Assembly (NCBI RefSeq): GCF_003577475.1
Contig: NZ_QPEP01000001.1
Location: forward strand, 81,830 to 113,829
From: Salinibius halmophilus
GTDB lineage: Bacteria > Pseudomonadota > Gammaproteobacteria > Pseudomonadales > Natronospirillaceae
DNA: 32,000 bases
Direction of reading: 5' to 3'
The position numbers were made by a program, and so were the translations under genes. Within the stretch, counting starts at the first letter, position 1, and the number at the start of each line of letters is the position of its first letter. The notes beneath the pieces are model-generated. The model was not told the origin of the DNA. It worked only from the letters and a program-made list of their open reading frames with translations, and searched no databases. Positions 1,432 to 32,000 of this stretch are shown here, one piece after another.

Positions 1432-1569
1432 GCTTATCATCTCCCCGTTTATTATTCGTTACTGGAACCGGTTCAAAAATAAATAATATAGTTGCGCCCC
1501 TCGCTAGCAGTTTTAACCGAACTGCGCTAGGTTAGCGATCAGTTTTTGATCAGTGATAGAGAGATTCTG

Positions 1570-8182: not shown

Positions 8183-8206
8183 ACAAAAGCCGCAAATGCA
8201 ACGACA

Positions 8207-8431: not shown

Positions 8432-8452
8432 TTTGCAGACAAAACCTACCAA

Positions 8453-14123: not shown

Positions 14124-14130
14124 ACACCAC

Positions 14131-15114: not shown

Positions 15115-15126
15115 TACTCTCCTTGC

Positions 15127-16071: not shown

Positions 16072-17384
16072 TACTGACCTCCTTGCTCGGTTCTGCCAAG
16101 CTCCACCATAGTGAGCTCATGCTTGATCACTTTGTTGATGTAGCGATGCTCTACATCGGCAAGCTTATAGCTTTTGTCATTCTGTAGGCGTCGCACTAAC
16201 CAATCGGTTAACCATTGGCTGACTATTAGCAGCCAGTCTTTGTTTTGCCGTTGTGTTTCATGTGCATGCGGGTCTAACCATGCTTGTAATGGCGCAGGCA
16301 AGCTGGTACTAGTTGACCAACCCGGCTCAAAAGAGGCTTGCAGCAACGCTGCTTGCTGCAATACGCGTTCGCAAATAGGAATGAGATACTGGTAGTCACG
16401 TTTGTAGCGCGTTTTAAAGTTACTATCTCGGTCGGTCAAATTAACCAAAAAGCTTTTGAACTCAGTAACGTGCCACCATGTCGCTTGGTCAAAGCGGCGC
16501 AGCAGCTGCGTTTCATTTTCGGGCGGCTTGGCAACTGCTTCAAAGGTGGGGGGTTGGCTGTTTAGCAGGTAAACCTTGCCCCCACGTTCATTGTTTAGCT
16601 GCGAGATATTTTGCGGCTTAGAACCACCAAAGTTTTGTACCGCAACATGAGGAAAACGCACATCAGTACGCTCGTGGTAATGCTCGTTACGCCTCGCGTC
16701 CCGCACTTCTTTACTGTCACCATAGCGGGTCGTTTCAATCGCTGCGTTATGAACCCCCATCAAGGATGATGCACCAAGTGGGCATAGTAAGTGATAACTA
16801 CCCTCTGCTACGGGAAAGTATACTTGCTTTAGCAACGTGTGCGCTGTCGGGTCTTTCACAGTGACAGCCTGCTTAAAGCCATCAAACCATTCACGGCGGA
16901 GGTCGGCGTTATCTGTAAAGGTATCTAAGGCATTAATGTGCCCCTGATTTAGCTGGTTAACCAAACTTTCGCCGTCCGCTTCAAGCTTTAGCAGTCGCGC
17001 GACATCAAGTGCTGCCGCATTGCCCACAGCGTCAATTTTTCGGACAGGAAGCGATGCCGTTGTTAAATACCGGCTTTCGTGGGTGTCGACTTCATCATCC
17101 AAGAAGCTACTAGCTTTCGCATCACTGTGGGCAAACTTAGCTGCATGAGTCGCCATGGCAATTTGTTTGGCGCGCTTTGCAGCATCAGTTAACCAGCTCT
17201 CTGGCTTAAACTGCTCTTCGAGCGCTTGTGCCCCCTCGGCAAAGGCTTGCTCGGCTGCCTCAATTTGCTCACTTGTAGCCGCCTCTTTTAACGCCTTATC
17301 GCGCGCTTTTTCTAAAGGTTCAAGCTTGGCTAGCTTGCGCCCTTTTATATAGTCAGCAATCGCTTGTTCTAACGTATCCGTCAT
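16071..17384 (-). CDS. csy1: Cascade large subunit Cas8f (Csy1)
   Basis: VGNAAALDVARLLKL, LLKQVYFPVAEGSYHLLCPL and QNFGGSKPQNISQLNNERGG match Csy1. Confidence 0.93.
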   Translation of the reverse strand: MTDTLEQAIADYIKGRKLAKLEPLEKARDKALKEAATSEQIEAAEQAFAEGAQALEEQFKPESWLTDAAKRAKQIAMATHAAKFAHSDAKASSFLDDEVDTHESRYLTTASLPVRKIDAVGNAAALDVARLLKLEADGESLVNQLNQGHINALDTFTDNADLRREWFDGFKQAVTVKDPTAHTLLKQVYFPVAEGSYHLLCPLGASSLMGVHNAAIETTRYGDSKEVRDARRNEHYHERTDVRFPHVAVQNFGGSKPQNISQLNNERGGKVYLLNSQPPTFEAVAKPPENETQLLRRFDQATWWHVTEFKSFLVNLTDRDSNFKTRYKRDYQYLIPICERVLQQAALLQASFEPGWSTSTSLPAPLQAWLDPHAHETQRQNKDWLLIVSQWLTDWLVRRLQNDKSYKLADVEHRYINKVIKHELTMVELGRTEQGGQ

Positions 17385-20300
17385 GCTTGCTCCTTTTCTT
17401 TAATTCGTCTAAACACACCAAGTTGTTCATGCCAGTGCCAGCGAATGGGGTCTTCATTTTCTCTTGGCGCACGTAGGTTTAATTCGCCGAATCTTTTCGT
17501 GGTTGCAGGGCCAGCCATATCAAATTGATTGGCAAGGCGCGTCATCACCGCCTCTGCGCTGTCTGGCTGCCACCAATACACATCGGTCGCTAACTCAACC
17601 TGCTCTTCATTAAAGCGGGACTGGCCAGCAGGTAGGTAATAAGTCATCTCTGAGGTATCGTCCACAATATGCCAAGTTAATGGGTCACCGTCCTCTTCGC
17701 ACATATAAACGAAGGTTTCTTGTGGATCTGAGCGGCGAAACTGAGTTTGCCTGATAAACTCACCGGCCCAGGTACCATGGCATGTCCACCATAGGCTTGC
17801 TTCTTTCTTGGTGCGATATTTTTTGAGGACTTTTGGTTTATTTAGCGTGGCGGCTAGTGCGCGGTGCTCTTGCAGCCAAAAATCATCTATCTTTACGGCT
17901 TGCTCTATGGTTTGGCCAAGATTTAATGCTTGGCTGAGCGCTTCACTGTTTGGCCCCTGAATGCGCAGTTGGGCACTAATGGGCTGCAGTTGTTCGTTGG
18001 TCATTAGGTCGCTAACTTGGTGACTAACAAGCGGTAGGCCTTTGGTTTCAAAACCAGGCTTTTCGAATGCGAGAGGCTTACCGAGAAGTGCTTTAAAGTT
18101 CTGGTTTAAAATCGCAATATTGTTGTCTGCAACGGGCCATTTTCGATGGCGCTGAATGCGCCCTGCTAGCTGAATGATTGACCTAAGTGAGCTTGGCTCA
18201 ACCACCGCCCAGTCGTAGTCATGGTCTCGACCAACTTCTACCACTGAGGTACCAAGCACGACGTAAATTCTGTTCTGCTTGTCACTCGCCGACTTTAGCG
18301 CGTCATGTTGCCATATTGCTTCAGGGTCATGGCGATCAAGTACGCGATCCAGCATGGCCTCTTTGGCTGAACGCATAGCAAGCGGAAACTGCGAGTGATA
18401 AACACAGTAATGGATGGCTGTGTTTTCCCATGAAGGGAGCCGAACAAGTTCTTTTACAACCGCCACCATGTTGTCGATATTAGCAAAACGCACCACCCCG
18501 ATGGACAGTTTTTCACTTTTCGTTTGATGGTGCTTAGCGTGCAACTGATGTATTTGCTGGTGAATGGTTTCGGCTAACCTTCTAGCAACCGACGCGTCAC
18601 TTTCGATGACAGGCACGCAAGTTCCCAAGCGGTTTTTAACAAGCTTAGGGCCAAGTGCTTTTAGGCGCTTATCGATAAACTTTTGATGATGCTGGGCAAA
18701 CACAGCCTTTACACCTTCTTCCTCGGAAGCACGTTTAATTAGCTGCTCTTCGGCACTAAACTCATCGAACCAAGCACACTGCACTTGTAAGGGCTTACCA
18801 TCATTGAAGTTGGCCTCATCAAAGTATTTACGCCCCACGCAATATGATTCAAATAATGACTCGGCAAGTGCTGGTGGCATGGTGGCGGTAGATAGCAACA
18901 ACCGCGAACCCAACATGCCAGCCCAGTTCACCAAACGGCTGAGCGCTGGCATATCTGCTAGCGAGAAATCATCTGGCTCATCTAGCACTAGATCACTGGT
19001 TAATAAACGCAGCATTGGCGCTATTTGCTTGCCGCCGCGCAGGCTTTCGGTTGCTGGCATAAGGTGGTCAATAGTGCTGACCATAACTGGCGCACTAAGC
19101 ATTTTTTCAAGCTTGGGGTTGCCTGCAAGCCAGTGTTTTAAGCGGCCATCATAGATTTGCCCATCATATTGCACACTCAAGTGCGCCAGTGGGTCGTTCG
19201 CTGAATCACTGCCAGTTTTAGATTCCGTTTGTTTGCCAAGCTGGTGTAAGTCTTGAATTTTTTGCGAGCCAATTAATACCGCCAACGCGTCGTCGTCGAG
19301 TTTAAGCAAGTTGCGGTACGAGTCGCCTGTTTGCAGCGTGAGCGTGCGCAGCCCAAGTGCGACTGAGAACCTGCACCCCTCATTGGGGTCGGCTAGCGCA
19401 TACATAATTTTGGCATTAGCCACGGTTTTACCACAGCCGGTTGAAGCCATATTGATCCCAAAGAAACCTTGGCGCTCGGTTGTGCTGGCGACCTTTTTAG
19501 CTACTTGTGCAGCGGTGTTTTGCCATAAAAAATCTTTGTGATTAGTTTTCTTCTTTAAAAACTTATGGTCTGCCAGTGCTGGCAAGGTTAACTTTAGCGT
19601 TGGCAGGTTGCGGGCAAATTTGAGTGCATTAAGGCCCACCCCAATATTGTGCTCATCAAGCTGCTGCTTGGTTTTTCCGGTTTTTCGATCCGTATTAGCA
19701 ACTGCCGTATAGGTTGAATCACGCCATACGGCTTTGGACTGCTCTGGTGGCAACGAGGAATAGTAGTGGTCGGCGAGCATTAGTGACATGCGCGCAATGT
19801 GACTAACAAAGCGCTGATTTAGCCAGTTTTGCTCGTCAAACAAATCCACGCAGTTCAGTGCTTTCTGTGCCAGGTTGCTCGCATTGTGCTGCCAAATACT
19901 ACTTTTAAGCGGTGTACCATTGGGGAAATGCCAGTTATCTGCCAGCGCTTGTTCACTGCAGTCTTTTTCCCGGTTGGCCGAGTTCCAAGATTCATCCAGC
20001 AGCGATTTCCAGCCTTTCATCTTAGTAAGGTCAGGTGCGTCACCTGTAACGTGTACCAGCGGTAATCTATGGTGAGACAGAATTAACCAAGCAACTAGTT
20101 GTGCAAAAGAGGCAAGCTGGTCGAACTGCTCACCCACTTTTTGATTGTTTGGTAGTGCTTCACATAACTTCTGGTCAAGAAGCTGGCCGTTGTTCGCTTG
20201 GCTGATCTCAGCCAGCTGAGTTAGCCATTCTTTATCAGACTTGCCGTCCACCAACTGCAGAAATGCACAGAACGATACCCATTCATGGCGGTAAGGCTCC

Positions 20301-20731
20301 CATACCTGCTCTCCTTTACCGCTGAGCTTTTTCTGAAACAGTGCATTGGCTTTGCCAATATCATGAAACAGCCCACCAATGGCGGCAGCCAGTGATAGCA
20401 CCTGCGTATAGCGCCACCCATGCTCCCATTCGCCATGGGCTAGGTTGAGCTTTGTAGTGTTCACAGGCACTGTGCCATCTAGCGCAAACTTGCTGCGATT
20501 ACCAACAATCCAAATGAGCTCCGAGCGGCTGCGACTACGAAGCCAATGACAGCTCACTGCGGTACTGCGCGAGGCACTTTGGCGCAGCATTTTTTGCACA
20601 GTTTTCAGGCCATCTTCCGTAATAATGGTCTGCCAGGTGTTGTCCCCTATGCGGTTGGCAAAGGCATCCAGCACCCGCCTAGTTTTGGCAAGCGCCCGCT
20701 TTTCGCACTGGCTAACAAAGGTGACCATCAT
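17381..20731 (-). CDS. cas3: Cas2-Cas3 fusion nuclease/helicase (Cas2/3, type I-F)
   Basis: 1116 aa. It has a Cas2-like N-terminus (MMVTFVSQCEKRALAKTRRVLDAFA), an HD region (LFHDIGKAN...HH) and helicase motifs (ASTGCGKT, VLDEPDD, STATMP, RIQRH). It overlaps both cas1 and csy1 by 4 nt. Confidence 0.95.
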   Translation of the reverse strand: MMVTFVSQCEKRALAKTRRVLDAFANRIGDNTWQTIITEDGLKTVQKMLRQSASRSTAVSCHWLRSRSRSELIWIVGNRSKFALDGTVPVNTTKLNLAHGEWEHGWRYTQVLSLAAAIGGLFHDIGKANALFQKKLSGKGEQVWEPYRHEWVSFCAFLQLVDGKSDKEWLTQLAEISQANNGQLLDQKLCEALPNNQKVGEQFDQLASFAQLVAWLILSHHRLPLVHVTGDAPDLTKMKGWKSLLDESWNSANREKDCSEQALADNWHFPNGTPLKSSIWQHNASNLAQKALNCVDLFDEQNWLNQRFVSHIARMSLMLADHYYSSLPPEQSKAVWRDSTYTAVANTDRKTGKTKQQLDEHNIGVGLNALKFARNLPTLKLTLPALADHKFLKKKTNHKDFLWQNTAAQVAKKVASTTERQGFFGINMASTGCGKTVANAKIMYALADPNEGCRFSVALGLRTLTLQTGDSYRNLLKLDDDALAVLIGSQKIQDLHQLGKQTESKTGSDSANDPLAHLSVQYDGQIYDGRLKHWLAGNPKLEKMLSAPVMVSTIDHLMPATESLRGGKQIAPMLRLLTSDLVLDEPDDFSLADMPALSRLVNWAGMLGSRLLLSTATMPPALAESLFESYCVGRKYFDEANFNDGKPLQVQCAWFDEFSAEEQLIKRASEEEGVKAVFAQHHQKFIDKRLKALGPKLVKNRLGTCVPVIESDASVARRLAETIHQQIHQLHAKHHQTKSEKLSIGVVRFANIDNMVAVVKELVRLPSWENTAIHYCVYHSQFPLAMRSAKEAMLDRVLDRHDPEAIWQHDALKSASDKQNRIYVVLGTSVVEVGRDHDYDWAVVEPSSLRSIIQLAGRIQRHRKWPVADNNIAILNQNFKALLGKPLAFEKPGFETKGLPLVSHQVSDLMTNEQLQPISAQLRIQGPNSEALSQALNLGQTIEQAVKIDDFWLQEHRALAATLNKPKVLKKYRTKKEASLWWTCHGTWAGEFIRQTQFRRSDPQETFVYMCEEDGDPLTWHIVDDTSEMTYYLPAGQSRFNEEQVELATDVYWWQPDSAEAVMTRLANQFDMAGPATTKRFGELNLRAPRENEDPIRWHWHEQLGVFRRIKEKEQA

Positions 20732-21684
20732 GATTGGTAGTCCTCCAAGGCAATGCGTTTTACCGTATCAAACATAAAATCCAAGGCTTTGTGGTCAGCA
20801 AAGGCTTGCAGCACTTGCTGGCGAAATTCTTGCTCTGTCGCGCCTTCGCTGGCGCAAATGAAGGCCCATGGCAATACCAGTGCATCTTTAATAAGGTCCG
20901 CCACATCAAAAACCAAAGCACCGCGCCGAGTTTTACCGTGCATCACGGCAAAACCATGAGGAATGCCCAGCACCCATAAACAACTTGCTGCCAAACCGTA
21001 AGCTAAGTAATTGCCATGGTTTAAAAAATCATTAGCGGTATCGGCTGAGTCATGCTGGCGGGTGAATTCTTCGGTGCCTGTATTGTTAGCGGCATACTTG
21101 TAGATGGCTTTGGTGAATTGCGCTTCGCTGGTAAGCAAGTCGGTGGCTGAATTGGCGCGCTTGGTTTTTAGTTCCAGTTGCGCCAGTGCTTTCTCTACGG
21201 CGTGGTCATTGACATTAAAGCCCTGCTTTTTTAGCTCGCCATCTTTCGACCATACTTTTTGAATAAAGGCCATTCTGGCTTCTTGAAACTGGCGAGCAGC
21301 AACTAGGCGCAGTGCATCATCAAACCAGAATGACAGCCAGCCTTGCACATACTCGGTGGGGCGATATTCACTTTGTGGGCTAAGCCACTCTACTTCGGCA
21401 GCCATATGCAGCGGCGTTCCTCCGCCACCACAAAAGCCAACTAACACACCAGCCTTGGCAAGCATTCGCATGGCCGCCTGAGTAATGGAGGTACCTGTGC
21501 CGAGTAATATCACCGTGGTGTTTGCAATGGGGATATTGAAGTAATGATTTTCTTTTTTGCCCTCCGTGAGATACAAAACTCGGCCATCTTTTTGCATAAC
21601 ACGGCAATGCTCTAAGTAGAACAAATTGGCACGCTTAGAGTGCAAAATGGTCTTCATATCTAGCGATGAAAAATCATCCATCAC
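20728..21684 (-). CDS. cas1: CRISPR integrase Cas1 (type I-F)
   Basis: 318 aa. ILHSKRANLFYLEHCRV..., GTGTSITQAAMRMLAKAGV and LNHGNYLAYG fit I-F Cas1, as does its position first in the cas operon. Confidence 0.93.
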   Translation of the reverse strand: MMDDFSSLDMKTILHSKRANLFYLEHCRVMQKDGRVLYLTEGKKENHYFNIPIANTTVILLGTGTSITQAAMRMLAKAGVLVGFCGGGGTPLHMAAEVEWLSPQSEYRPTEYVQGWLSFWFDDALRLVAARQFQEARMAFIQKVWSKDGELKKQGFNVNDHAVEKALAQLELKTKRANSATDLLTSEAQFTKAIYKYAANNTGTEEFTRQHDSADTANDFLNHGNYLAYGLAASCLWVLGIPHGFAVMHGKTRRGALVFDVADLIKDALVLPWAFICASEGATEQEFRQQVLQAFADHKALDFMFDTVKRIALEDYQS

Positions 21685-21766: not shown

Positions 21767-22609
21767 TTACCCCTTTGGCCAAAAAGAGTCTTTTATTCGC
21801 TCTCGGCATTTCGGCTCAAGCACTATCTGTTGCGCAAATGGATCTTCGTTGTAGCGGTCTACGCGTAATTCTTGCAGTGCATAGTTCAACAAGGCCTTGC
21901 GAGTGGTAAGCTCTAGCTGGCCGTTTTGCATTCCATATTCAAGTTCAACACATTTGCGGTTGTTTTCTGGTAGACGAGGATCTGAAATGATGGTTAGTAC
22001 TAACTTGTTGTGCCAGTCATCATCAAACTCGCCGGTGTGCTCAGGAAATCCTTCGCTGGTAATTTCGCCTTCCTCGGCAAAGCGCGCCAATACAAAATCG
22101 GCGAAACGTCGATTCTTCTCGCAATAGGCTCGTGTGTGATAACGTCCGCTGGCAAAAACAATACTATGGGGCTGAATGACTCTATGCTCATGCTGCCCGC
22201 TGGATACCGAGTAGTACTTGGCTTCGAATCTTGATTGAGTTTCGATGGCAAAAAGCAGCTTGCCAATAATTTCTGGCGCTTCACTTCGTTGGTAAGACAA
22301 TGGTGTTTGAATGCCACCTACCAACACAGGGTGCTTTTCAACAAAATCATTAAAGGTGGGAACACAATTACTAGTGATAGGCTGGCCAACAGGGGTATAT
22401 AAATTTACTTGGCCGAGTTTTTCTATCGCTACATACCCTGCATCAACGTAGGGTTGAAGCTTCTTTAGTGCAGTGGGCTTGGTAACATTAAAACGTTGCT
22501 CAATACCTTTTCTGGTAAAGGGTTTTCGCCAGTATAAGCAAGCCTCGATATAACTGGTAATACTGCAGTTGCCACCTTGCATAGCCATTTCCCATGTGAA
22601 CCAATTCAC
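21767..22609 (-). CDS. WYL-domain transcriptional regulator (wHTH-WYL-C-terminal extension)
   Basis: The N-terminus is HTH-like (FTRKGIEQRFNVTKPTALKKLQPYVDAGYV). The central segment FEAKYYSVSSGQHEHRVIQPHSIVFASGRYHTRAYCEKNRRFADFVLARF fits the WYL-domain pattern. It is co-oriented with, and immediately upstream of, cas1. The exact start (M1, M8 or M10) is uncertain. Confidence 0.75.
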   Translation of the reverse strand: MNWFTWEMAMQGGNCSITSYIEACLYWRKPFTRKGIEQRFNVTKPTALKKLQPYVDAGYVAIEKLGQVNLYTPVGQPITSNCVPTFNDFVEKHPVLVGGIQTPLSYQRSEAPEIIGKLLFAIETQSRFEAKYYSVSSGQHEHRVIQPHSIVFASGRYHTRAYCEKNRRFADFVLARFAEEGEITSEGFPEHTGEFDDDWHNKLVLTIISDPRLPENNRKCVELEYGMQNGQLELTTRKALLNYALQELRVDRYNEDPFAQQIVLEPKCRERIKDSFWPKG

Positions 22610-22834
22610 ACAATATTACAGAGTGGTTTCAGCTACTGCTACCCTATATTAAACGCATAACATTGACATATGTTTATAAATCGACCGATTTTTATTGCTA
22701 TACCTACCCTTTGGTATTGGCCATTATAAAACTAGCGCTCTTCGGGACTTTGAGTGGTAGCAAGGCTTGATACCCCACTGCTTTAGGTTGCCGGTGGCAA
22801 TGCAATAAACTGTCTTAACTGAACTGGCAATCAA

Positions 22835-22863
22835 AGCTCAAACAGTGTTACGTAGTTTGAGCT
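22835..22863 (+). promoter_or_regulatory. conserved leader palindrome, copy A1 (AGCTCAAAC-n11-GTTTGAGCT), start of a ~95-nt conserved 5' region
   Basis: The same element and downstream block (TAGACTTnTGnCC...TCTGCTATGnnTGAGTA...CAGCA-ATG) occur upstream of all four lipoprotein genes. Confidence 0.45.
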
Positions 22864-22930
22864 GTGAGGCGGTGGTAGACTTATGGCCAAATTAATCTGC
22901 TATGCGTGAGTAGACGATCAAGGACCAGCA

Positions 22931-23890
22931 ATGAAGAAGCACGGAATGTTCCTTGCCGCAGCAAGCGCCCTGTTGTTATCAGCCTGTCAATCCAACAAGT
23001 GCACACCATCCGAGACAAATGTTTGCATCGACAACAAAGAAGCTGCGGACATTATGCAAGAGATTTTGGATGGTATGGTGTTTATCCCCGCCGGTGAGTT
23101 TTACATGGGGTTAGTGCAAGGGCCTGAAGATGAAATGCCTGAGCGTAAAATCTACATGGATGACTACTTCATCTACCAAAGTGAGCACACTTGGAAGCAA
23201 ATTGATGCGTTTTATCGCCTATCTGGTTATGGCTATACCGATGGCGCCTGGCAGTGGGAGCCTGAGAGTGGCGTTGATTTGGGCGCAGAGCAACCAGCTT
23301 TCGCAGTTTACTATTATGACGCGCATAATTTTTGCCAATGGATTGGTGACTTGACCGGTTTGGATGCAGGATTACAAACTGAAGCACAGTATGAAAAAGC
23401 AGCAAAAAATGGTAACCGCAGTCATGTTTGGGCAACTGCAGATAACCAGTTTATTGAAGGGCGCGATTATCCAACAATGGAACAACGAACTGTCACGTCT
23501 CGAAGTGGTCACGGTGAGTCGGTATTATTGTATATACCCGTTACCAGCCAGCCTCCAAGCCCTAACGGCTTATATGGATTGCATACTAATGGTGAAGAAT
23601 GGACGGCGGATCTGTGGCGGTCTAAGTTTCTAGAGTTAGCGGCGGATAGAAACCCTACATTCCCTGTGCCATACGAAACTCGCCTAGCAGGCCGACAAAT
23701 CAACAATGATAAAGAACTCAAGGCTGGAGAGCGCTTTGGCGTTGCCGTTAGAGGTGGTGGGCCAGCGTGGGACAGATATAATATTCAGAATAGTTATATC
23801 CAACAACGCATTGCTCGAGACGGTAGGGGTACTAATTCACTGCGGTGTACTATCAACGCTAGTCAACTGCCTACCATTAATCAACCTTAG
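22931..23890 (+). CDS. lipoprotein with FGE-sulfatase/SUMF1-type domain, paralog A1
   Basis: Lipobox signal peptide MKKHGMFLAAASALLLSAC. Motifs of the FGE-sulfatase family: MVFIPAGEFYMG, LQTEAQYEKAAKNG, NGLYGLHTNGEEW, VRGGGPAW, SLRC. Confidence 0.85.
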   Translation: MKKHGMFLAAASALLLSACQSNKCTPSETNVCIDNKEAADIMQEILDGMVFIPAGEFYMGLVQGPEDEMPERKIYMDDYFIYQSEHTWKQIDAFYRLSGYGYTDGAWQWEPESGVDLGAEQPAFAVYYYDAHNFCQWIGDLTGLDAGLQTEAQYEKAAKNGNRSHVWATADNQFIEGRDYPTMEQRTVTSRSGHGESVLLYIPVTSQPPSPNGLYGLHTNGEEWTADLWRSKFLELAADRNPTFPVPYETRLAGRQINNDKELKAGERFGVAVRGGGPAWDRYNIQNSYIQQRIARDGRGTNSLRCTINASQLPTINQP

Positions 23891-23901
23891 TTTTTGCAGC
23901 T

Positions 23902-23936
23902 GAATACCTGCCGTAGCAGCGCTTCGACAGGTATTC
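23902..23936. terminator. bidirectional hairpin between the convergent A1 and mini-ORF genes
   Basis: GAATACCTG...CAGGTATTC has 9-bp arms. The paralogous copy at 27052-27085 is a perfect 15-bp stem. Confidence 0.55.
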
Positions 23937-23940
23937 GACT

Positions 23941-24081
23941 TTAAAATGCTCGGCTAACGCTTCGAATTTTGGGTTCTTGCAGCCAATTATCTGCCGGTAG
24001 AATAGGCTCAATGCCATCGTAAGGCTGTAATGACTCAAACCAAGTTGCAAGTTCGGCTTTATCGTCGCTATCACTGAGCAT
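23941..24081 (-). CDS. 46-aa micro-protein (MLSDSDDKAELATWFESLQPYDGIEPILPADNWLQEPKIRSVSRAF), copy 1
   Basis: Not in the ORF track because it is under 60 aa. Against the paralog at 27090-27230, 8 of the 10 differing codons are synonymous in this frame, and the overlapping 65-aa track ORF accumulates amino-acid changes. The SD is weak. Confidence 0.6.
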   Translation of the reverse strand: MLSDSDDKAELATWFESLQPYDGIEPILPADNWLQEPKIRSVSRAF

Positions 24082-24153
24082 GTTTGATTAAAACATACTG
24101 CTTTTGGTTACCAGTTACTACCCAATTCCCTACAAAAACAGTGTTAGTAATCA

Positions 24154-24184
24154 CAGCTCAAACAGTATTCCGTGATTAGAGCTG
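24154..24184 (+). promoter_or_regulatory. conserved leader palindrome, copy B1 (CAGCTC...GAGCTG, weaker stem), within a ~260-nt leader
   Basis: Homologous to the A leaders up to a vestigial ATG at 24251. This is followed by a 15-codon uORF (24251-24298) and about 55 more nt before the B1 start. Confidence 0.4.
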
Positions 24185-24353
24185 ACTGGCAATGTTAGAC
24201 TTGTGGCCCAACTATTCTGCTATGCGTGAGTATACGACCAAGTATCAGCAATGAGTACTGCTAGCCTTAGCATGTCATTAGCGACCACCGTTAAATAGAG
24301 CCAAACAACACAACATGGTAAAGTAATCAAAAATATCAGGGAGCGACTAGGTT

Positions 24354-25265
24354 ATGAAAAGAAATGCTCTGTTAATCGCGACTCTGCCACTGCTAGTAAG
24401 CGCCTGTTTTGGTGGTACGTCTTGTGAGCCAACCAAACAACAAATTTGTGTCGACGATGATGAATTTGCCGAATACCTTCAAGGTGTAATGGATAACATG
24501 GTATACGTTGAGCCTGGCGAGTTTATTATGGGTATTAACAACGGCATTCCCGAAGAAGGCCCGCCCATAGAAGTGTACCTAGACGGTTATTATTTATTTA
24601 ATACCAAACATTCGTGGCTAGGGTTTGAGTTTTTTGATCAGAGGTCTGGGGTAGAGCGAAAGAATAAAAAGTTCGCCTATAATCCCGACCCCGAATTTAA
24701 TCAGGGTCGCTACGGCGCTGACTTCGCTGGAGCATTGCTTTCTTGGAATGAAGCTGAGCAGTTTTGTCATTGGCTAGGCTCTGAGACAGGTTTGCCATTT
24801 GAATTGCCAAGCGAAGCGCAGTGGGAAAAGGCTGCTAAAGCGGGCAATGATGATTGGATTTATGCTACTGACAACGGCCAATTAGATTTTGGGCGGAATT
24901 TCTTTAGCAAAGAAGACCATCGCAAAGGGCTTTACCCTGGCCACGAACTACCTTCGAAGTATTTCCCTCCTAACCCATACGGCTTCTACGAGATGGCCTT
25001 CAATGGGGGCGAATGGATGCGAGATGGCTATGTGGATAACTACCATGAACTGGCCGAACGCGAAAACCCGGTTATGTTGCCTGAAGACTTTGGCCTAGAG
25101 CCGGGCCCGCATATTACAAGAGTATGGCGTAGTGATTGGTCACTGGCGCATGACCTTACATTGAACTACCTCCAGTCTAGAAAAACATCAAACCCAGTTA
25201 CCGGTACATTCAGTGTGCGTTGTGCCATTAATACAACGAAACCATTGCCAGACGTTAAGTACTAG
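24354..25265 (+). CDS. lipoprotein with FGE-sulfatase/SUMF1-type domain, paralog B1
   Basis: Lipobox MKRNALLIATLPLLVSAC. Motifs MVYVEPGEFIMG, LPSEAQWEKAAKAG, NPYGFYEMAFNGGEW, VWRSDW, VRCA. Confidence 0.85.
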   Translation: MKRNALLIATLPLLVSACFGGTSCEPTKQQICVDDDEFAEYLQGVMDNMVYVEPGEFIMGINNGIPEEGPPIEVYLDGYYLFNTKHSWLGFEFFDQRSGVERKNKKFAYNPDPEFNQGRYGADFAGALLSWNEAEQFCHWLGSETGLPFELPSEAQWEKAAKAGNDDWIYATDNGQLDFGRNFFSKEDHRKGLYPGHELPSKYFPPNPYGFYEMAFNGGEWMRDGYVDNYHELAERENPVMLPEDFGLEPGPHITRVWRSDWSLAHDLTLNYLQSRKTSNPVTGTFSVRCAINTTKPLPDVKY

Positions 25266-25285
25266 ATTACAGAACGATGGATAGC

Positions 25286-25693
25286 CTATTCGGCTATCCA
25301 ATCTACGATATAGTCTAATGGTCCATATAGCCAATCTTTCGGAGGATATACGTCGGCGTCAAAATCACCCTCCAACTCTTCAAACCAGCCTTTCAGTTCA
25401 TTAAGATACAACCCTAAGCCTAGTCTTATTTTGATCGCTTCTGCTGTTTCCTCAGCGAGTTGATACTTCACTTCTGTTGGGCGATTTGCATTCTGGGGGC
25501 CGTGGGGGCTTTCTAGAGTGTGTTCTAATACCTCATGAAATTCGCGACGCGTAGAGATACCATTAACTAAAAGGTACAGCATCGCTTTACGCTTCTTGCC
25601 AAACCAATCAATATCCCATGAGCCCGTGTCATCTATTAAAAACCATAGCCAATTACCAATTACTTCTGGCGGGGCGTTTTTCGCGCCGGGCAA
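25286..25693 (-). CDS. orphan copy of the C-terminal domain of the giant protein (135 codons, TTG start at best)
   Basis: Aligns end to end with the last 129 aa of the 28436..32000 protein, with about 83 of 129 identical by my manual count and the same ...DWIAE* terminus. Homology (NIDLWR against HIDFIR) continues about 12 codons upstream of the TTG to an in-frame TAG. There is no ATG and no visible SD. Confidence 0.5.
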   Translation of the reverse strand: MPGAKNAPPEVIGNWLWFLIDDTGSWDIDWFGKKRKAMLYLLVNGISTRREFHEVLEHTLESPHGPQNANRPTEVKYQLAEETAEAIKIRLGLGLYLNELKGWFEELEGDFDADVYPPKDWLYGPLDYIVDWIAE

Positions 25694-25838
25694 CGGGTAT
25701 CGCCACAGGTCAATGTTTCCCGAACCTTCGGTTCGAAAAACCTACCGGTTGCTACCGGATGTATGATTGCCTGTCGGTTGTACTGGGCGTTTTTTACCTC
25801 TCCTCTACAGTGCGGCCCTCTTTTTCTTCGCCGTGCGG

Positions 25839-25964
25839 TTATTCAAGGCAGTGTTCGAGCACTTCGTTGAACTCGCGCAGCGTAGAAATACCCTTGGCTA
25901 ATAACGACTGGTTAATCTGAACACCTGCTGTTATTGGTTGCCAATTACTCCCCAGCAACCTGCT
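25839..25964 (-). pseudogene. decayed third fragment of the same C-terminal domain (…LLGSNW…QSLLAKGISTLREFNEVLEHCLE*)
   Basis: The minus-strand translation matches LYLLKNGVSSRREFHEVLEHCLE of the giant protein. It is bounded by in-frame stops, and the region between the IGNW-like motif and the LLK motif is deleted. Confidence 0.55.
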
Positions 25965-25983
25965 TCAACATAGCCAGCAATCA

Positions 25984-26014
25984 CAGCTCAAACAGTGTTA
26001 CGTGGTTTGAGCTG
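25984..26014 (+). promoter_or_regulatory. conserved leader palindrome, copy A2 (CAGCTCAAAC-n11-GTTTGAGCTG)
   Basis: Perfect 10-bp arms. The 96-nt block up to the ATG differs from copy A1 at 6 positions. Confidence 0.45.
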
Positions 26015-26080
26015 TGAGGCGGTGGTAGACTTATGACCAAATTAATCTGCTATGTATGAGTAGACAATCAAGGATCAGCA

Positions 26081-27040
26081 ATGAAGAAGCATGGATTTTT
26101 GCTTGCCGCAGCAAGCGCCTTGTTGTTATCAGCCTGTCAATCCAACAAGTGCACACTATCCGAGACAAATGTTTGCATCGACAACAAAGAAGTTGCTGAC
26201 ATAATGCAAGAGATTTTGGATGGCATGGTGTTTATCCCAGCCGGTGAGTTTTACATGGGGTTGGTGCAAGGGCCTGAGAATCAAATGCCTGAGCGAAAAA
26301 TCTATATGGATGACTACTTCATCTACCAAAGTGAGCACACTTGGAAGCAAATCGATGCGTTTTATCGCCTATCTGGTTATGGCTATACCGATGGCGCAAA
26401 ACAATGGGAACCCGAACGCGGAGTCAACCTTGGCGCGAACCAGCCTGCCTATGCTGTTTACTATTACGACGCGCATAATTTTTGCCAATGGATTGGTGAC
26501 TTGACCGGTTTGGATGCAGGATTACAAACTGAAGCACAGTATGAAAAAGCAGCAAAAAATGGTAACCGCAGTCATGTTTGGGCAACTGCAGATAACCAGT
26601 TTATTGAAGGGCGCGATTATCCAACAATGGAACAACGAACTGTCACGTCTCGAAGTGGTCACGGTGAGTCGGTATTATTGTATATACCCGTTACCAGCCA
26701 GCCTCCAAGCCCTAACGGCTTATATGGCCTACATACCAATGGCGAGGAATGGACAGCGGATCTGTGGCGGTCTAAATATCTAGAGTTAGCGGCGGATAGA
26801 AACCCTACATTCCCTGTGCCATACGAAACTCGTCTAGCAGGCCGACAAATCAACAATGATAAAGAACTCAAGGCTGGAGAGCGCTATGGCGTTGCGGTTC
26901 GTGGTGGTGGGCCAGCATGGGACAGATACAATATTCAGAATAGTTATATCCAACAACGCATTGCTCGAGACGGCACTGGTAGCAACTCTCTTCGCTGCAC
27001 TATTAACGCCAGTGTGCTTCCTACCATTAATCAGCCTTAG
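26081..27040 (+). CDS. lipoprotein with FGE-sulfatase/SUMF1-type domain, paralog A2
   Basis: 319 aa. About 16 amino-acid differences from A1, clustered in a few patches. Confidence 0.85.
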   Translation: MKKHGFLLAAASALLLSACQSNKCTLSETNVCIDNKEVADIMQEILDGMVFIPAGEFYMGLVQGPENQMPERKIYMDDYFIYQSEHTWKQIDAFYRLSGYGYTDGAKQWEPERGVNLGANQPAYAVYYYDAHNFCQWIGDLTGLDAGLQTEAQYEKAAKNGNRSHVWATADNQFIEGRDYPTMEQRTVTSRSGHGESVLLYIPVTSQPPSPNGLYGLHTNGEEWTADLWRSKYLELAADRNPTFPVPYETRLAGRQINNDKELKAGERYGVAVRGGGPAWDRYNIQNSYIQQRIARDGTGSNSLRCTINASVLPTINQP

Positions 27041-27051
27041 TTTTTGCCGGT

Positions 27052-27085
27052 GAATACCTGTCGAAGTAAACTTCGACAGGTATTC
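27052..27085. terminator. bidirectional hairpin between the convergent A2 and mini-ORF genes
   Basis: GAATACCTGTCGAAG-TAAA-CTTCGACAGGTATTC is a perfect 15-bp stem. Confidence 0.6.
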
Positions 27086-27089
27086 AAGT

Positions 27090-27230
27090 TTAAAATGCTC
27101 TACTAACACTTCGAATTTTTGGCTCTTGCAGCCAATTATCTGCTGGTAGAATAGGCTCAATCCCATCGTAAGGCTGTAATGACTCAAACCAAGTTGCAAG
27201 TTCGGCTTTATCTTCTCTATCACTGAGCAT
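27090..27230 (-). CDS. 46-aa micro-protein, copy 2 (MLSDREDKAELATWFESLQPYDGIEPILPADNWLQEPKIRSVSRAF)
   Basis: See copy 1. Only 2 amino-acid changes despite 11 nucleotide differences. Confidence 0.6.
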   Translation of the reverse strand: MLSDREDKAELATWFESLQPYDGIEPILPADNWLQEPKIRSVSRAF

Positions 27231-27304
27231 GTTTGATTAGAACATCTACTGCTTTTGGTTACCAGTTACTACCCAATTCCCTACAAAAACAGTGTTAGTA
27301 ATAA

Positions 27305-27335
27305 CAGCTCAAACAGTATTCCGTGATTAGAGCTG
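27305..27335 (+). promoter_or_regulatory. conserved leader palindrome, copy B2
   Basis: The leader at 27248-27504 differs from the B1 leader at 24097-24353 at only 2 positions. Confidence 0.4.
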
Positions 27336-27504
27336 ACTGGCAATGTTAGACTTGTGGCCCAACTATTCTGCTATGCGTGAGTATACGACCAAGTATCAGC
27401 AATGAGTACTGCTAGCCTTAGCATGTCATTAGCGACCACCGTTAAATAGAGCCAAACAACACAACATGGTAAAGTAATCAAAAATATCAAGGAGCGACTA
27501 GGTT

Positions 27505-28458
27505 ATGAAAAGTAATGCTCTGTTAATCGCGACTCTGCCACTGCTAGTAAGTGCCTGTTTTGGTGGTACGTCTTGTGAGCCAAACGAACAACAAATTTGT
27601 GTCGACGACGAAGAGTTTGCCGAATATCTTCAAGGTGTAATGGATAACATGGTATACGTTGAGCCTGGCGAGTTTATCATGGGCATTAACAACGGCATTC
27701 CCGACGAAGGCCCGCCCATAGAAGTGTACCTAGACGGTTATTATTTATTTAATACCAAACACTCTTGGCTAGGGTTTGAGTTTTTTGATCAGAGGTCTGG
27801 AATTGAAAGACAAGAAAAAGGCCGATTTTCGTACAATCCCGATCCAGACTTCAACAATGGTCGATATGGTTCCGAGTTCCCAGGCGCCTTTTTGTCTTGG
27901 ACCGAAGCTAGTCAATTTTGTCGGTGGTTAGGCTCTGAGACAGGATTGCCATTCGTATTACCAAGTGAAGCGCAATGGGAAAAAGCAGCCAAGAGCGGTA
28001 ACAGTGACTGGATTTATGCGACGGATAACGGGCAACTGGAGTTTGGTCGAAACTTTTATAGTGAAGAAGACTACCGATCTGGCAAGTACCCTGGCGATCG
28101 CTTACCCTCCAAATACTTTCCGCCAAACCCTTATGGCTTTTACGAGATGGCTTTTAACGGTGGGGAATGGATGCGAGATGGCTATGTAGATAACTACCAT
28201 GAACTCGCCGAGCGCGATAATCCGGTTATGTTGCCTGAAGACTTTGGCTTAGAGCCGGGTCCACATATCACTCGAGTTTGGCGGAGTGACTGGTCTTTGG
28301 CACATGACCTTACATTAAATTACATACAGTCCAGAAAAACCGCAGATCCAAGCAGTGGAAGGCATGGAGTCAGGTGTGCGATTAACTCAAGCTCTCCATT
28401 GCCGCAAATCGTTTACCAGCAGTGGACTGGATTGCCTACTCGGCAATCCAATCACTAA
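27505..28458 (+). CDS. lipoprotein with FGE-sulfatase/SUMF1-type domain, paralog B2
   Basis: 317 aa with the same motifs as B1. The stop codon of B1 (TAG) is CAG here (28417-28419), giving a 13-aa tail that overlaps the 3' end of the convergent giant gene by 23 nt. Confidence 0.85.
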   Translation: MKSNALLIATLPLLVSACFGGTSCEPNEQQICVDDEEFAEYLQGVMDNMVYVEPGEFIMGINNGIPDEGPPIEVYLDGYYLFNTKHSWLGFEFFDQRSGIERQEKGRFSYNPDPDFNNGRYGSEFPGAFLSWTEASQFCRWLGSETGLPFVLPSEAQWEKAAKSGNSDWIYATDNGQLEFGRNFYSEEDYRSGKYPGDRLPSKYFPPNPYGFYEMAFNGGEWMRDGYVDNYHELAERDNPVMLPEDFGLEPGPHITRVWRSDWSLAHDLTLNYIQSRKTADPSSGRHGVRCAINSSSPLPQIVYQQWTGLPTRQSNH

Positions 28459-31400
28459 GGTACTCTAGAGGGTTGTATAGCCAATCATACTGTGGAAGCG
28501 TATCATCACTAAAATCGCCCTCAAGATTATTGAACCACTCTTTCAGCTCCAGTCGCAACACAACAGTGCTAAGCCTATTGCGTATAGCTTCAGCGGTTTC
28601 TTCAACTAAAGCCGATTTGACTTCAGCTGTTCGCGACTGGTGCTCGATGCTGTGTGGGCTTTCCAAGCAATGCTCAAGAACCTCATGAAATTCACGACGA
28701 GAGGATACTCCGTTTTTGAGCAAATATAATATTGCCTTTCGTTTTTTATTGAGGAAATCCCAATCAAAGAGCCCTGTTTCGCTAATCAAAAACCAAAGCC
28801 AATTACCAATGACTTCGGGGGGGGCACTTCTAATAAAGTCAATATGCTCTTCAGAGCAACGTTCTACGATTGTGAATACTAAATCGTCCGCTTTTGAGTC
28901 CTTCCACTCTGCATCCCACAATTGTACTTGATCAATAGCCGAGATTGACGCACGAACTAACTTTTGATTAGCTCGGTCGGTGAGCTCATCCCAGAATTCG
29001 GAGCCTCCCGATGCATACACTGCGGCATCGACGAGGTTGTAGCGACCTAAGGTCAAAAGCCCCCATACTGCAGCGCAATAGTATTCATAAACACGCTCGT
29101 CATCAAAAATGTCAGCAATACGAAACTCTGCTTTTTTAAGTTGTTCGTAAATAACTACGAAGAAGTTGTAAATCTGAGCGACATCCACAGCAGCGGTCAT
29201 TTCGCCGCCTCCGCCGACTTTCACTACGAGCTTGGCTTTAAAAGAAATTAAAAACTTACTGGAGCCTCGGTCAAACCCAATCTTCAAATCAAATGCAGCA
29301 CCTACCCCTAGCGCTGCTGTAACAATGTAGCCAAGACTTCCCAGTTCTTTAAACTCACTGTCTTTAATTGGCTCACTTGGCTTGGTTGGTTTATGCCACA
29401 TCAACTTGCCTGCTATACCTGCCGAGGCCTCAACACCGGCAAATACTTCACCGCCTAGGTTTGCACCACCACTTGGAAGGTTAAGGCCTTCTGGTGCGCT
29501 ACCAGCGTAGCTCATATATACGGTTTTAGAACGCGTGTCGCCGTTAGCATTCGTCACTGTTCGGGCCTGATTTACCGTTTCAGTTGCGCCGTTTGTTCTA
29601 ATGTTTGTCGTAGTCGTTGTTGTTTGATTATTTACGTGATCAAGTTGCTGCGAAGCTTGCTCTACCGAGCTTTTGCCCCAAGGCACCCCGGTATTTAAAT
29701 GCACCCCGCCACTTAGGCTTGCCTTTACACAAGCAGCCGCCGATAAAGTAAATTCAACGTCTACTCTTAGGTAGCCAAACTCAAACTCTTGCTCAACCTT
29801 TTGCCCAGTAAAACCATCAGGCTCTTTATCCACAACCGACAAAGCCAGTTGAGTACCAATCGTTTTGTTTGGATGCGGTGCGGCATCCGCTTCTGGACTC
29901 GCCTTTTTAGGTAAAACTCTATTAAAGTAAGAGGCTTGCGTACCTTGTGGGGTAGGCATTTTATAGTGGCTTAAATCGCGCGTATCAATTGCTGCATCCA
30001 GTAAACTACTGTCTACTTGCGGAACGTCTCGCTGCAACTTTGCCTTGAAGGCTGGGCGGTGCTGTAGGTTGAAATCAGCATATAGATTCGAAACCGAAGC
30101 GGGGGACGATGACGAGAACTCGATGTTCCGACATAAAAACTCCCGTACAACTTTGTACCTTAATTCGCGTAACTGTTTTTTAAACTCTCGCCCTAGCAAT
30201 TCTTCATCACCATGAATGGTTCGAAGTGATAGCGCAAAATGCCTATTTGTATCGTCGGCTGTTAACGACTGAAGCAAGGCATAGTTCAATTTATCTGTGC
30301 CAGCAAAACTATGTATGTCACTGAGCACAGAGTCATGCATTGCCTTTAATAAGCTCACGCCTGCGGGGGTCAGTTCAATACTGAACTTTTTAAACAATGG
30401 CGGCTCGTAATTGCTGCCGCCATGATTTGCGGGCATCATGTCGAACGGGGCAGGCACTAGGCTGTCGTTAAAGAACTTTTCATACCCTGTCACCATGGTT
30501 GAGCTGTCCACTGTGATCTCTACTCGCCGGTTAGTTGCCATGCCAACACTAGTGGAGTTGGTTGCTTTACTCAGGCTCTCACCATATGAAATAGTGCGAA
30601 TGGAACCAGCAAATAAGCCTTTATTCATCAACTTCGCTTTCACGGCCTCGGCACGTGCCAGCCCTAGCGCGACGTTATCGTTTTCTTGGCCTTCACTATC
30701 AGTAAATCCCTTTACTAATAGCTTGACACCAGGCTCACGAGATACTTGGTCTACAATCCCTTGCAGCATGGTGTCATATGAAGCGTCTACCAGTGCTGAG
30801 CTCGAAGCGAAGCGTATGTCCTCTGGCGTGCTTAACTCCCAATTACCAAGGCGCTTGAAAAGTCTAACCCCATGCGGGAAATAGCCTTCCATATGCTGGA
30901 AATCTTTCAGCGTACAAAAAACGTGAAGCACCTCAGTTTTGTACTTGAACTTGTGAGCTTTAAACTTAACCGAGGCGTCAAAGCCATTTGAGTTAGGCAA
31001 TTTACATCCGCCTCGCACGCTACCCTCTGCCAAAGCAGCTCTGGCTTTAAGCTCCCCAGCTAGAGCAAGGTTGCCATCTAGTGGGTTGAAATCTGCCTTG
31101 CCTGTGGCTGTGCCCATGTAGCGCAAAAAAGAACCGTTACCGGAGGCGTCCCACTGCATTGGCGGCAGGTTCGCATCTTTTACTGCCGACTTTAGCTCAC
31201 GCCAAGCTTTTTCTTGCCTTGAAGCGCTATCGCCGCTCATGGACATTGAACCACCTGTAGACTGCTGGCTTAGCCCCATTGGCCAGTAAGCCTTAACTGG
31301 GGATTCGCCAGCCCATAGCTCGTCACACTTTCGATCAATTCGGCCCCAATTTTCGTGAGTAATGAGCTGCTCGAGTGTTTCTTCAGATGGATTGTCTGGC

Positions 31401-32000
31401 CCGAATAAATCAACGATATGCTGTCGCTGCTCTGCCCGCGCATCGGTTTTGAAGTGCAAAGCCTGGTTTAGCTTTGTAATACCTCGATCCAGGCTATTCA
31501 AAAACTCAGAGTTATCAATCTTACCCTTCAGTGCCGGGTCGAAGCCATTTGCCGCATTCGCTATAAATTTCAAAGAAATTTGCCCAGATGCTGTGTACTC
31601 TTTCGCAACACTTAACGAAGCGATAGGCTCAGGCTCTTCAGCATTTATTCCTTGCTTACCGTACTTAAAGTTGGCTGGTGGCACGCTACTTTTTTCCGAG
31701 AAGTCCATCGTGCCGTCAGCGGCAAGTGCTCGCCAAAAACCCGAAATGTCAATTGTGCGATCGGCGGGCAACTGGCCATTTGCTAACTTACTAATTGGTA
31801 CAAGAAGCACATGCTCCTTGGGAATTTCAGTACCAAATAGAATGTCGTCGTCCCCTACCTGCTCCGCAGCACCGCTCGCTTTGGTGTTAAAGCATGTAAT
31901 GAAGTCTAGGGTTTCGGTGTTGCCAATCTTGACGCCTTGCGATTGCATTATGGCAAGGAGATTCCCTTTCTTTTCTTCAACATCAGCAGTTTTAGAGCCG
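28436..32000 (-). CDS. giant protein (>1170 aa, 5' end probably outside the window) with an internal OmpA-like peptidoglycan-binding domain and the exchangeable C-terminal domain
   Basis: The reading frame stays open upstream of the first ATG (31948) to the window edge (…GSKTADVEEKKGNLLAI-MQSQ…), and there is no SD before that ATG. OmpA_C-like segment: VKLLVKGFTDSEGQENDNVALGLARAEAVKAKLMNKG...NRRVEITV, at about 30510-30830. It also has a Thr/Asn-rich tract (QTTTTTTN) and Gly/Ala-rich amphipathic segments. Confidence 0.85.
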   Translation of the reverse strand, partial: GSKTADVEEKKGNLLAIMQSQGVKIGNTETLDFITCFNTKASGAAEQVGDDDILFGTEIPKEHVLLVPISKLANGQLPADRTIDISGFWRALAADGTMDFSEKSSVPPANFKYGKQGINAEEPEPIASLSVAKEYTASGQISLKFIANAANGFDPALKGKIDNSEFLNSLDRGITKLNQALHFKTDARAEQRQHIVDLFGPDNPSEETLEQLITHENWGRIDRKCDELWAGESPVKAYWPMGLSQQSTGGSMSMSGDSASRQEKAWRELKSAVKDANLPPMQWDASGNGSFLRYMGTATGKADFNPLDGNLALAGELKARAALAEGSVRGGCKLPNSNGFDASVKFKAHKFKYKTEVLHVFCTLKDFQHMEGYFPHGVRLFKRLGNWELSTPEDIRFASSSALVDASYDTMLQGIVDQVSREPGVKLLVKGFTDSEGQENDNVALGLARAEAVKAKLMNKGLFAGSIRTISYGESLSKATNSTSVGMATNRRVEITVDSSTMVTGYEKFFNDSLVPAPFDMMPANHGGSNYEPPLFKKFSIELTPAGVSLLKAMHDSVLSDIHSFAGTDKLNYALLQSLTADDTNRHFALSLRTIHGDEELLGREFKKQLRELRYKVVREFLCRNIEFSSSSPASVSNLYADFNLQHRPAFKAKLQRDVPQVDSSLLDAAIDTRDLSHYKMPTPQGTQASYFNRVLPKKASPEADAAPHPNKTIGTQLALSVVDKEPDGFTGQKVEQEFEFGYLRVDVEFTLSAAACVKASLSGGVHLNTGVPWGKSSVEQASQQLDHVNNQTTTTTTNIRTNGATETVNQARTVTNANGDTRSKTVYMSYAGSAPEGLNLPSGGANLGGEVFAGVEASAGIAGKLMWHKPTKPSEPIKDSEFKELGSLGYIVTAALGVGAAFDLKIGFDRGSSKFLISFKAKLVVKVGGGGEMTAAVDVAQIYNFFVVIYEQLKKAEFRIADIFDDERVYEYYCAAVWGLLTLGRYNLVDAAVYASGGSEFWDELTDRANQKLVRASISAIDQVQLWDAEWKDSKADDLVFTIVERCSEEHIDFIRSAPPEVIGNWLWFLISETGLFDWDFLNKKRKAILYLLKNGVSSRREFHEVLEHCLESPHSIEHQSRTAEVKSALVEETAEAIRNRLSTVVLRLELKEWFNNLEGDFSDDTLPQYDWLYNPLEYLSDWIAE
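30510..30830 (-). other. OmpA C-terminal-like (peptidoglycan-binding) domain inside the giant protein
   Basis: GFTDSxGxxxxNxxLxxxRAxAVxxxL...NRRVEI is the hallmark OmpA/MotB/Pal motif series. Confidence 0.7.

Follow-up and report, generated by a model that had tools for sequence, protein, structure and literature searches.

Among proteins of the FGE/SUMF1 fold, a non-enzymatic role tied to type VI secretion is known for TagR, a periplasmic protein of the Pseudomonas aeruginosa H1 type VI secretion system (T6SS), which is a signalling component of the threonine-phosphorylation pathway and is not known to be an immunity protein, to be arrayed or to be paired with an effector. The locus described here lies in a stretch of 32,000 nucleotides (nt) from Salinibius halmophilus (contig NZ_QPEP01000001.1, positions 81,830 to 113,829; hereafter the window, in whose own numbering all positions are given) and is made up of a large gene for an OmpA-domain protein and an array of genes for four FGE-fold lipoproteins that face it or pieces of its 3′ end. 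The closest described system is Tse3/Tsi3: in Acinetobacter baumannii ATCC 17978, Tsi3 is the immunity protein to the T6SS effector Tse3, and tsi3 lies on the strand opposite tse3 (Lopez et al. 2021, J Bacteriol 203:e00281-21; bioRxiv 10.1101/2021.05.21.445229). Homologues of Tsi3, recognised in that work by RPS-BLAST at E < 1e-50 to a profile built from WP_032046197.1 (abTse3 being WP_001070510.1), have an FGE domain from which the catalytic cysteines are missing and are modelled best on PvdO, FGE and EgtB, and protection by Tsi3 requires binding of its cognate effector. Thousands of proteobacterial genomes encode them, in the neighbourhood of vgrG, hcp and PAAR genes; 84% stand in groups of at least two, most often four, whose members are usually non-identical. 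How such arrays assemble was explicitly left open by the same authors. The orphan immunity arrays of Vibrio cholerae T6SS loci have been explained by homology-facilitated illegitimate recombination and sequential displacement (Kirchberger et al. 2017, Sci Rep 7:45133, PMC5361080).

The S. halmophilus locus is, with high probability, a T6SS effector-immunity locus of the Tse3/Tsi3 kind. It shares with Tse3/Tsi3 a large effector gene, FGE-type immunity without the catalytic cysteines, immunity genes on the opposite strand, non-identical arrays that most often number four, and PvdO and FGE among the nearest structures. The vgrG gene that adjoins tse3 has a counterpart upstream of the effector gene in relatives of the Salinibius locus. 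FGE-fold immunity, convergence and four-gene arrays are already known from Tse3/Tsi3. An initial annotation, made from the sequence of the window alone, had regarded the convergent partner as a departure from known layouts and the FGE fold as one not known among immunity families; both features had been published for Tsi3 by Lopez et al. (2021). What is new here is an orphan copy of the effector's C-terminal domain (CT), a third relic of that domain, the signature of purifying selection in two 46-aa mini-open reading frames (mini-ORFs), hairpins at the convergent junctions, and similar relics in three unrelated genomes. The locus is best regarded as a divergent Tse3/Tsi3-type system whose effector bears an OmpA domain and in which the growth of an immunity array can be read with unusual clarity. 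Its main parts are the following.

28436..32000, minus strand: probable T6SS cargo effector of a Tse3-like family with an inserted OmpA-like domain (family profile; homologues beside vgrG)
30527..30811, minus strand: OmpA-like peptidoglycan-binding insertion in the effector (PF00691, E 1.4e-14, residues 380-474 of the in-window ORF)
28439..28843, minus strand: CT2, the C-terminal helical domain of the effector, the part duplicated as an orphan (repeat comparison, profile of CT domains, AF2 helices)
22931..23890, plus strand: A1, FGE-fold lipoprotein (PF03781, E 1.9e-24)
24354..25265, plus strand: B1, FGE-fold lipoprotein, putative orphan immunity protein paired with CT1 (PF03781, E 5e-20)
26081..27040, plus strand: A2, FGE-fold lipoprotein of a putative second Tsi3-like type (PF03781, E 1.8e-24)
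27505..28458, plus strand: B2, FGE-fold lipoprotein, presumed cognate immunity protein, Tsi3-like (PF03781, E 1.9e-19; lipobox LVSAC)

The ORF list, the matches to PF03781 and the lipoboxes agree with the four plus-strand lipoprotein genes of the initial annotation. All four products match the FGE-sulfatase family PF03781 (E 2e-19 to 2e-24; 71-87 bits against a cut-off of 23.3), and a lipobox, LLSAC or LVSAC, is present in each. A and B proteins are 31% identical to one another, whereas A1 and A2 are 95% identical (303/319 aa) and B1 and B2 85% (258 of 303 aligned aa), as had been noted with the remark that the B copies differ more. The genes thus form an array of four non-identical copies, as do Tsi3-type arrays, which hold two or more copies and most often four. 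In the profile alignment no cysteine of A or B lies opposite the SYM[C]HRSY[C] segment of human FGE, and the catalytic pair is therefore missing; the only cysteines present are the lipid cysteine, two N-terminal cysteines and those of FC(Q/R)W and RC(A/T)I. The N-terminal spacing is C-x4/5-C-x7-C, with the lipid cysteine counted, which corrects the Cys-x6-7-Cys-x7-8-Cys first read there. The best solved relatives are PvdO for A1 and PorK and FGE for B2, and identity to the proteobacterial homologues recovered is about 25-32%. At its 3′ end B2 overlaps the 3′ end of the effector gene by 23 nt.

The effector is a 100% match to WP_119393263.1 (P0001), a 1274-aa S. halmophilus protein. Its first 87 residues fall outside the window, and within the window the reading frame stays open upstream of the first ATG of the ORF. 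The protein has no signal peptide, and OmpA is its sole Pfam match. An exhaustive search with a family profile collected 789 clusters at E<=1e-3 and 324 at E<=1e-30; because the window effector scores 579 bits across profile positions 14-706, it can be regarded as a full-length member of the family with an insertion. No Pfam, NCBIfam or PADLOC model covers this family. The OmpA-like insertion is present in P0002, P0003 and a further member, P0200, but is missing from most of the family; the subfamily that carries it is rare, with three sequences in addition to P0200. The Salinibius protein also differs from Tse3 in having this insertion and about 350 further residues, and in its length of 1274 aa, the family being typically about 700-830 aa long. 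Two members, P0072 and P0180, are fused to complete N-terminal VgrG domains, which lends indirect support to T6SS-dependent delivery. In the AF2 models of the effector the confident parts are the OmpA domain, which is modelled best, three beta hairpins of about 26 residues in a glycine-rich conserved core, and the helical CT (pLDDT up to about 90).

The closest foreign homologue of the effector, P0002 (locus L001), is 45% identical and has an OmpA domain as well. A B-like FGE gene converges on it, and the gene before it matches the C-terminal 300 residues of VgrG (E 8e-14). Within S. halmophilus, a paralogue 43-46% identical to the effector, P0003, is encoded on a second contig, where consecutive accessions (WP_119396436-439) give the order effector P0003, B-like P0005, one unknown protein (WP_119396438) and A-like P0024. 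A genome search with the large protein gave no match, a metagenome search matched OmpA only, and a word-indexed search with the effector alignment recovered relatives from Burkholderiales only and no named Acinetobacter protein.

The co-occurrence of the two partners in other genomes was examined by a genome scan with the FGE alignment, followed by mapping of effector, VgrG, PAAR and FGE homologues, which gave 19 loci including the window, L001 and L002. In each of the 19, one to five FGE-like genes stand beside a homologue of the large protein of 670-1080 aa, and vgrG adjoins wherever the extent of the contig lets it be seen. The arrangement is convergent in 13 (the window, L001, L004, L006, L010, L013, L014, L016, L018, L019, L020, L023 and L033) and co-directional in the other six (L002, L008, L011, L012, L015 and L071). 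Effector matches by tblastn or blastp were obtained for L002, L004, L006, L008, L010, L011, L014, L018, L020, L023, L033 and L071. The genera represented include Pseudomonas, Serratia, Providencia, Paraburkholderia, Duganella, Vibrio, Marinomonas, Nevskia and Dechloromonas, together with a metagenome-assembled genome (MAG) of Thermodesulfobacteriota. L002 has the order vgrG, a 709-aa homologue, an FGE gene (P0009, 29% identical to B2), PAAR and, further on, TssM; its 709-aa protein is homologous to P0001 in two collinear blocks, residues 366-427 and 936-1072. More distant FGE matches, in cyanobacteria, Planctomycetes, Chloroflexi and others, lack the effector.

Each lipoprotein gene of the window is faced tail-to-tail either by the 3′ end of the large OmpA-domain gene or by a relic of that 3′ end, as the initial annotation had described, and direct repeats spaced 3149-3154 nt apart, located with a repeat finder, agree with the period of about 3150 nt given there for the unit of A, mini-ORF, B and CT. 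The effector-derived pieces and the repeat unit are listed below.

25286..25693, minus strand: orphan CT1, an intact 135-aa ORF, WP_119393260.1 (63% identity to CT2, E 5e-47)
23941..24081, minus strand: mini-ORF 1, 46 aa, putative effector-tail relic facing A1 (CT-HMM, E 0.007)
27090..27230, minus strand: mini-ORF 2, 46 aa, putative effector-tail relic facing A2 (CT-HMM, E 0.0065)
25788..25904, minus strand: degraded third CT relic, LLAKGISTLREFNEVLEHCLE*PHGEEKEGRTVEER*KT (tblastn, E 1e-13 to P0003)
22790..25693, no strand assigned: repeat unit 1 (A1, mini-ORF, B1, CT1), homologous to unit 2 at 25940-28843 (sliding comparison)

Orphan CT1 copies the last 131 residues of the effector, starts at a conserved APPEVIGNWLWFL box and is identical to CT2 at 83/135 positions, in keeping with the count first reported. 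The proposed likeness of the mini-ORFs to the CT tail is indeed weak, yet it lies above chance level: when the window was divided into its 677 six-frame segments and each was scored with a hidden Markov model (CT-HMM) of four CT domains, the mini-ORFs came next below the true copies. They also occupy the position and orientation of true effector tails. A PEVIGNW box remnant upstream of the mini-ORFs was considered, was unsupported by the multiple alignment and is not claimed. Between CT1 and A2 is the third CT relic, which the initial annotation had missed. Its frame is broken by two stops, and it shares 79% identity with residues 1121-1159 of P0003; its resemblance to the paralogue of the second locus argues for exchange between the two S. 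halmophilus loci. Relics of this sort are found elsewhere beside orphan FGE genes: a 44-aa effector-tail relic, identical, in the Thermodesulfobacteriota MAG (L004, 1016-1147), two of 24 and 26 aa in Pseudomonas (L010, 8211-8282 and 9468-9545) and one of 70 aa, 86% identical, in Paraburkholderia (L020, 8560-8769). All of these retain their native frame and stop, and several start near a W[FY]xxL motif.

The two large units of the window have diverged unevenly. Compared in steps of 60 nt, the part from 22814 to about 24650 is about 80-100% identical; most values exceed 90%, and inside A the identity falls once to 67%. From about 24650 to 25693 the range is 53-92%, with B at about 70% and CT at about 60%. 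Synonymous (dS) and non-synonymous (dN) divergence, their ratio (omega) and, for the saturated comparisons, the proportions of synonymous (pS) and non-synonymous (pN) differences are as follows.

A1/A2: dS 0.33, dN 0.03, omega 0.09
B1/B2, codons 1-95: dS 0.15, dN 0.02, omega 0.15
B1/B2, remainder: pS 0.80 (saturated), dN 0.135, omega not computable
CT1/CT2: pS 0.90 (saturated), pN 0.29, omega not computable

These values indicate that both repeat units are old and have been selectively maintained, and that CT1 diverged as a coding sequence. Because both units are under purifying selection, this is not the neutral, strain-specific duplication that had been raised as a possibility. Because dS is 0.15 before codon 95 of B and pS is 0.80 after it, a recombination or conversion breakpoint can be placed inside B near this codon. 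The two mini-ORFs differ from one another by seven synonymous and two non-synonymous changes in their own frame; the synonymous bias is missing in four of the five other frames, and one antisense frame shows it more weakly (6:3). This pattern, which rests on nine differences, suggests selection on a translated product, and the mini-ORFs may be real small genes and not just relics. A stretch upstream of B1 (24140-24260) is, by eye, about 75% similar to the 5′ flank and start of A2 (25965-26085), with ACTGTTTGAGCTGTGATT in both, which implies that A-units and B-units are themselves old duplicates, flanks included.

All four convergent junctions carry a strong hairpin over or beside the stop codons (dG, folding free energy).

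23901..23937, no strand assigned: hairpin separating the stops of A1 and mini-ORF 1 (dG -19.1 kcal/mol, z -3.1)
25276..25303, no strand assigned: hairpin across the CT1 stop codon, B1/CT1 junction (dG -15.8 kcal/mol, z -5.1)
27051..27086, no strand assigned: hairpin separating the stops of A2 and mini-ORF 2 (dG -25.7 kcal/mol, z -6.6)
28421..28456, no strand assigned: hairpin across the effector stop codon, B2/effector junction (dG -18.8 kcal/mol, z -5.7)

Between the B2/effector and B1/CT1 hairpins there is one compensatory change, A:T to T:A, and one arm of each of the two encodes the last residues of the effector, DWIAE*. It is possible that the junction hairpins are bidirectional terminators. 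A scan of the locus for promoter and terminator consensus sequences was at chance level and is not used as evidence. The stop codon of B1 is missing from B2, whose frame crosses the junction hairpin and gains 13-14 residues there (QQWTGLPTRQSNH; 28420-28458, plus strand).

Taken together, the relics, the orphan CT and the hairpins point to growth of the array by units of an immunity gene and an effector tail. The most probable course is that units consisting of an immunity gene, a junction hairpin and the convergent effector's 3′ tail were added or duplicated, and that gene conversion later homogenised the left part of the two large units. The tail relics beside orphan FGE genes in L004, L010 and L020 fit such unit-wise growth and the sequential-displacement model (PMC5361080). 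As in the V. cholerae arrays, immunity genes accumulate beside one active effector and the 3′ ends of displaced effectors stay behind (PMC5361080). The V. cholerae modules, however, are co-directional and belong to other protein families, whereas the Salinibius units are convergent, each with a junction hairpin, and the Salinibius array is in part an internal tandem duplication that gene conversion has since patched. The locus also stands apart from Tse3/Tsi3 as described through its effector-tail relics and its intact orphan CT, the word 'orphan' not being used in the available part of the text of Lopez et al. (2021). The nested relics (orphan CT, paralogue-like fragment, mini-ORFs and hairpins) would thus offer a sequence-level picture of how a convergent Tsi3 array assembles. 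A different interpretation of the tail pieces is that they are maintained and expressed parts, either small mimics of the effector C terminus or recombination cassettes that switch tail and immunity. We think that this is unlikely; if it were true, the junction hairpin would delimit a modular unit of immunity gene, terminator and tail.

In the scheme that we favour, the 1274-aa cargo effector would be loaded on a VgrG spike encoded upstream, beyond the window, and fired into neighbouring Gram-negative cells. Its delivery by a T6SS in S. halmophilus is thus presumed. The lipoprotein nature of the immunity proteins, the lack of a signal peptide in the effector and the peptidoglycan-binding insertion make it probable that the effector acts in the periplasm or envelope of the recipient, where, in the OmpA-bearing subfamily, the insertion may assist it. 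Two features, the OmpA-like insertion and the lipoprotein form of the immunity proteins, suggest for the effector family as a whole that its target lies in the periplasm or cell wall. The four FGE-fold proteins would be non-enzymatic periplasmic lipoproteins that shield the producing cell and its kin by binding effectors of the family, a mode of protection adopted here from Lopez et al. (2021). As to which immunity protein neutralises which effector, B2 would be cognate to the resident effector, and B1 to an allele that was displaced or duplicated and has left nothing but its C-terminal 135 aa (CT1). A1 and A2 would represent a second immunity type, conserved far more strongly, and a 46-aa tail would be all that remains of the effector belonging to it. 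At present the large gene is annotated as 'OmpA family protein', the FGE genes as 'SUMF1/EgtB/PvdO family nonheme iron enzyme' and the orphan CT as a hypothetical protein; the six annotated genes have the consecutive accessions WP_119393258 to WP_119393263, and the 46-aa mini-ORFs have neither an annotation nor an entry in the protein collection. If the scheme is correct, this locus and its many relatives are better read as T6SS toxin-antitoxin-like competition modules than by these names.

Several observations count against this scheme. The assignment to the Tse3/Tsi3 kind is drawn from shared architecture and domain content, not from direct alignment. A word-indexed search with B2 returned 18 relatives, none of them from Acinetobacter, and the Salinibius proteins would therefore form a divergent branch. 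The two AF2 models of the effector are of low overall confidence (pLDDT 56 and 63), and Foldseek comparison of these models with the PDB gave nothing below E 0.04, so that no solved fold was matched. Finally, the A-type protein is 88-95% identical in its three copies (A1, A2 and P0024; 90% between A2 and the second-locus copy), while its neighbours have diverged far more (B proteins 57-85%, effectors 45-48%), which a simple scheme of one effector and one immunity protein does not account for. The conservation of A could be due to gene conversion or to protection against a conserved foreign effector.

The initial annotation had likened the locus to polymorphic-toxin loci with orphan cassettes, and an effector-immunity locus with orphan modules is what the present data favour as well. 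A stricter version of this view is that the effector is a polymorphic toxin in the Rhs/CdiA sense, in which the last 135 aa are exchangeable and CT1-B1 is a silent cassette that recombines at the APPEVIGNWLWFL box, switching toxin and immunity together. The locus resembles those of Rhs and CdiA in that an orphan C-terminal fragment, accompanied by an immunity gene of its own, stands past the end of the full-length gene. The start of this fragment coincides exactly with a conserved box, and its ORF has stayed intact although synonymous sites are saturated. CT and the C-terminal two-thirds of B make up the divergent part of the repeat, which implies that effector tail and immunity protein diverge as one block, and the locus holds several stacked relics that stem from different alleles. 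CT is, however, not the variable part that this explanation requires: identity among four alleles is 51-63% in CT and 45-48% in the rest of the effector, the CT motifs (PPE..G, RK.A...L and the helical end) are conserved in distant family members, and tblastn matches from other genera run into CT, to residue 1195-1218. The glycine-rich beta region, which is likely to be the active core, is situated upstream of CT and outside the duplication, and CT is probably not the toxic part. Moreover, the locus has no scaffold of Rhs/YD or FHA repeats, the immunity gene is convergent and encodes a lipoprotein, where a downstream gene would be expected, and there is no evidence of actual swaps. We consider exchange of a CT toxin improbable, and a type VI effector with a conserved tail remains the explanation that we prefer.

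Still less credible is the idea that the FGE-fold lipoproteins are working enzymes (sulfatase-maturing FGE, PvdO-like oxidoreductases) or structural envelope parts such as PorK/GldK-like ring lipoproteins that act on or with a peptidoglycan-anchored giant surface protein and have no role in competition. It could draw on the strong PF03781 matches, on the PorK structures among the best solved relatives of B2, on the OmpA-like domain of the large protein and on weak NCBIfam matches to PvdO and GldK/PorK. The latter amount to 38-49 bits for PvdO against a cut-off of 500 and 38-45 bits for the GldK/PorK model TIGR03525 against 350, with EgtB at 15-19 against 360, and the catalytic cysteine pair of FGE is missing; the case for ordinary catalytic FGE/EgtB/PvdO enzymes, which had been named at the outset, fails on these two grounds. 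In addition, the window contains no sulfatase, pyoverdine or type IX secretion system genes, the partners are flanked elsewhere by vgrG and PAAR, and protection by Tsi3 depends on binding and not on a shared activity (Lopez et al. 2021). An enzymatic or structural role is therefore highly improbable, and we retain T6SS immunity as the probable function of these lipoproteins.

The locus abuts CRISPR-Cas and WYL genes, as first recorded. A functional tie to the type I-F CRISPR-Cas system or to the WYL gene was considered and dropped, the relation being one of adjacency only. The WYL-domain gene (21767-22609) comes after the type I-F cas genes (13503-21684, minus strand: cas6f, csy3, csy2, csy1, cas2-3 and cas1), and the CRISPR array (9325-13373) comprises 68 repeats of TTTCTAAGCCGCCTGTGCGGCGGTGAAG with a spacing of 60 nt. 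Among the housekeeping genes of the window, the ORFs at 1546-3012 (plus strand, 488 aa) and 4267-5148 (minus strand, 293 aa) have no Pfam match. A short tandem array at 8206-8393, with periods of 20 nt and 77 nt and the unit CTTAACCGTCACACCCGC..., lies inside or beside the ORF at 8196-8525.

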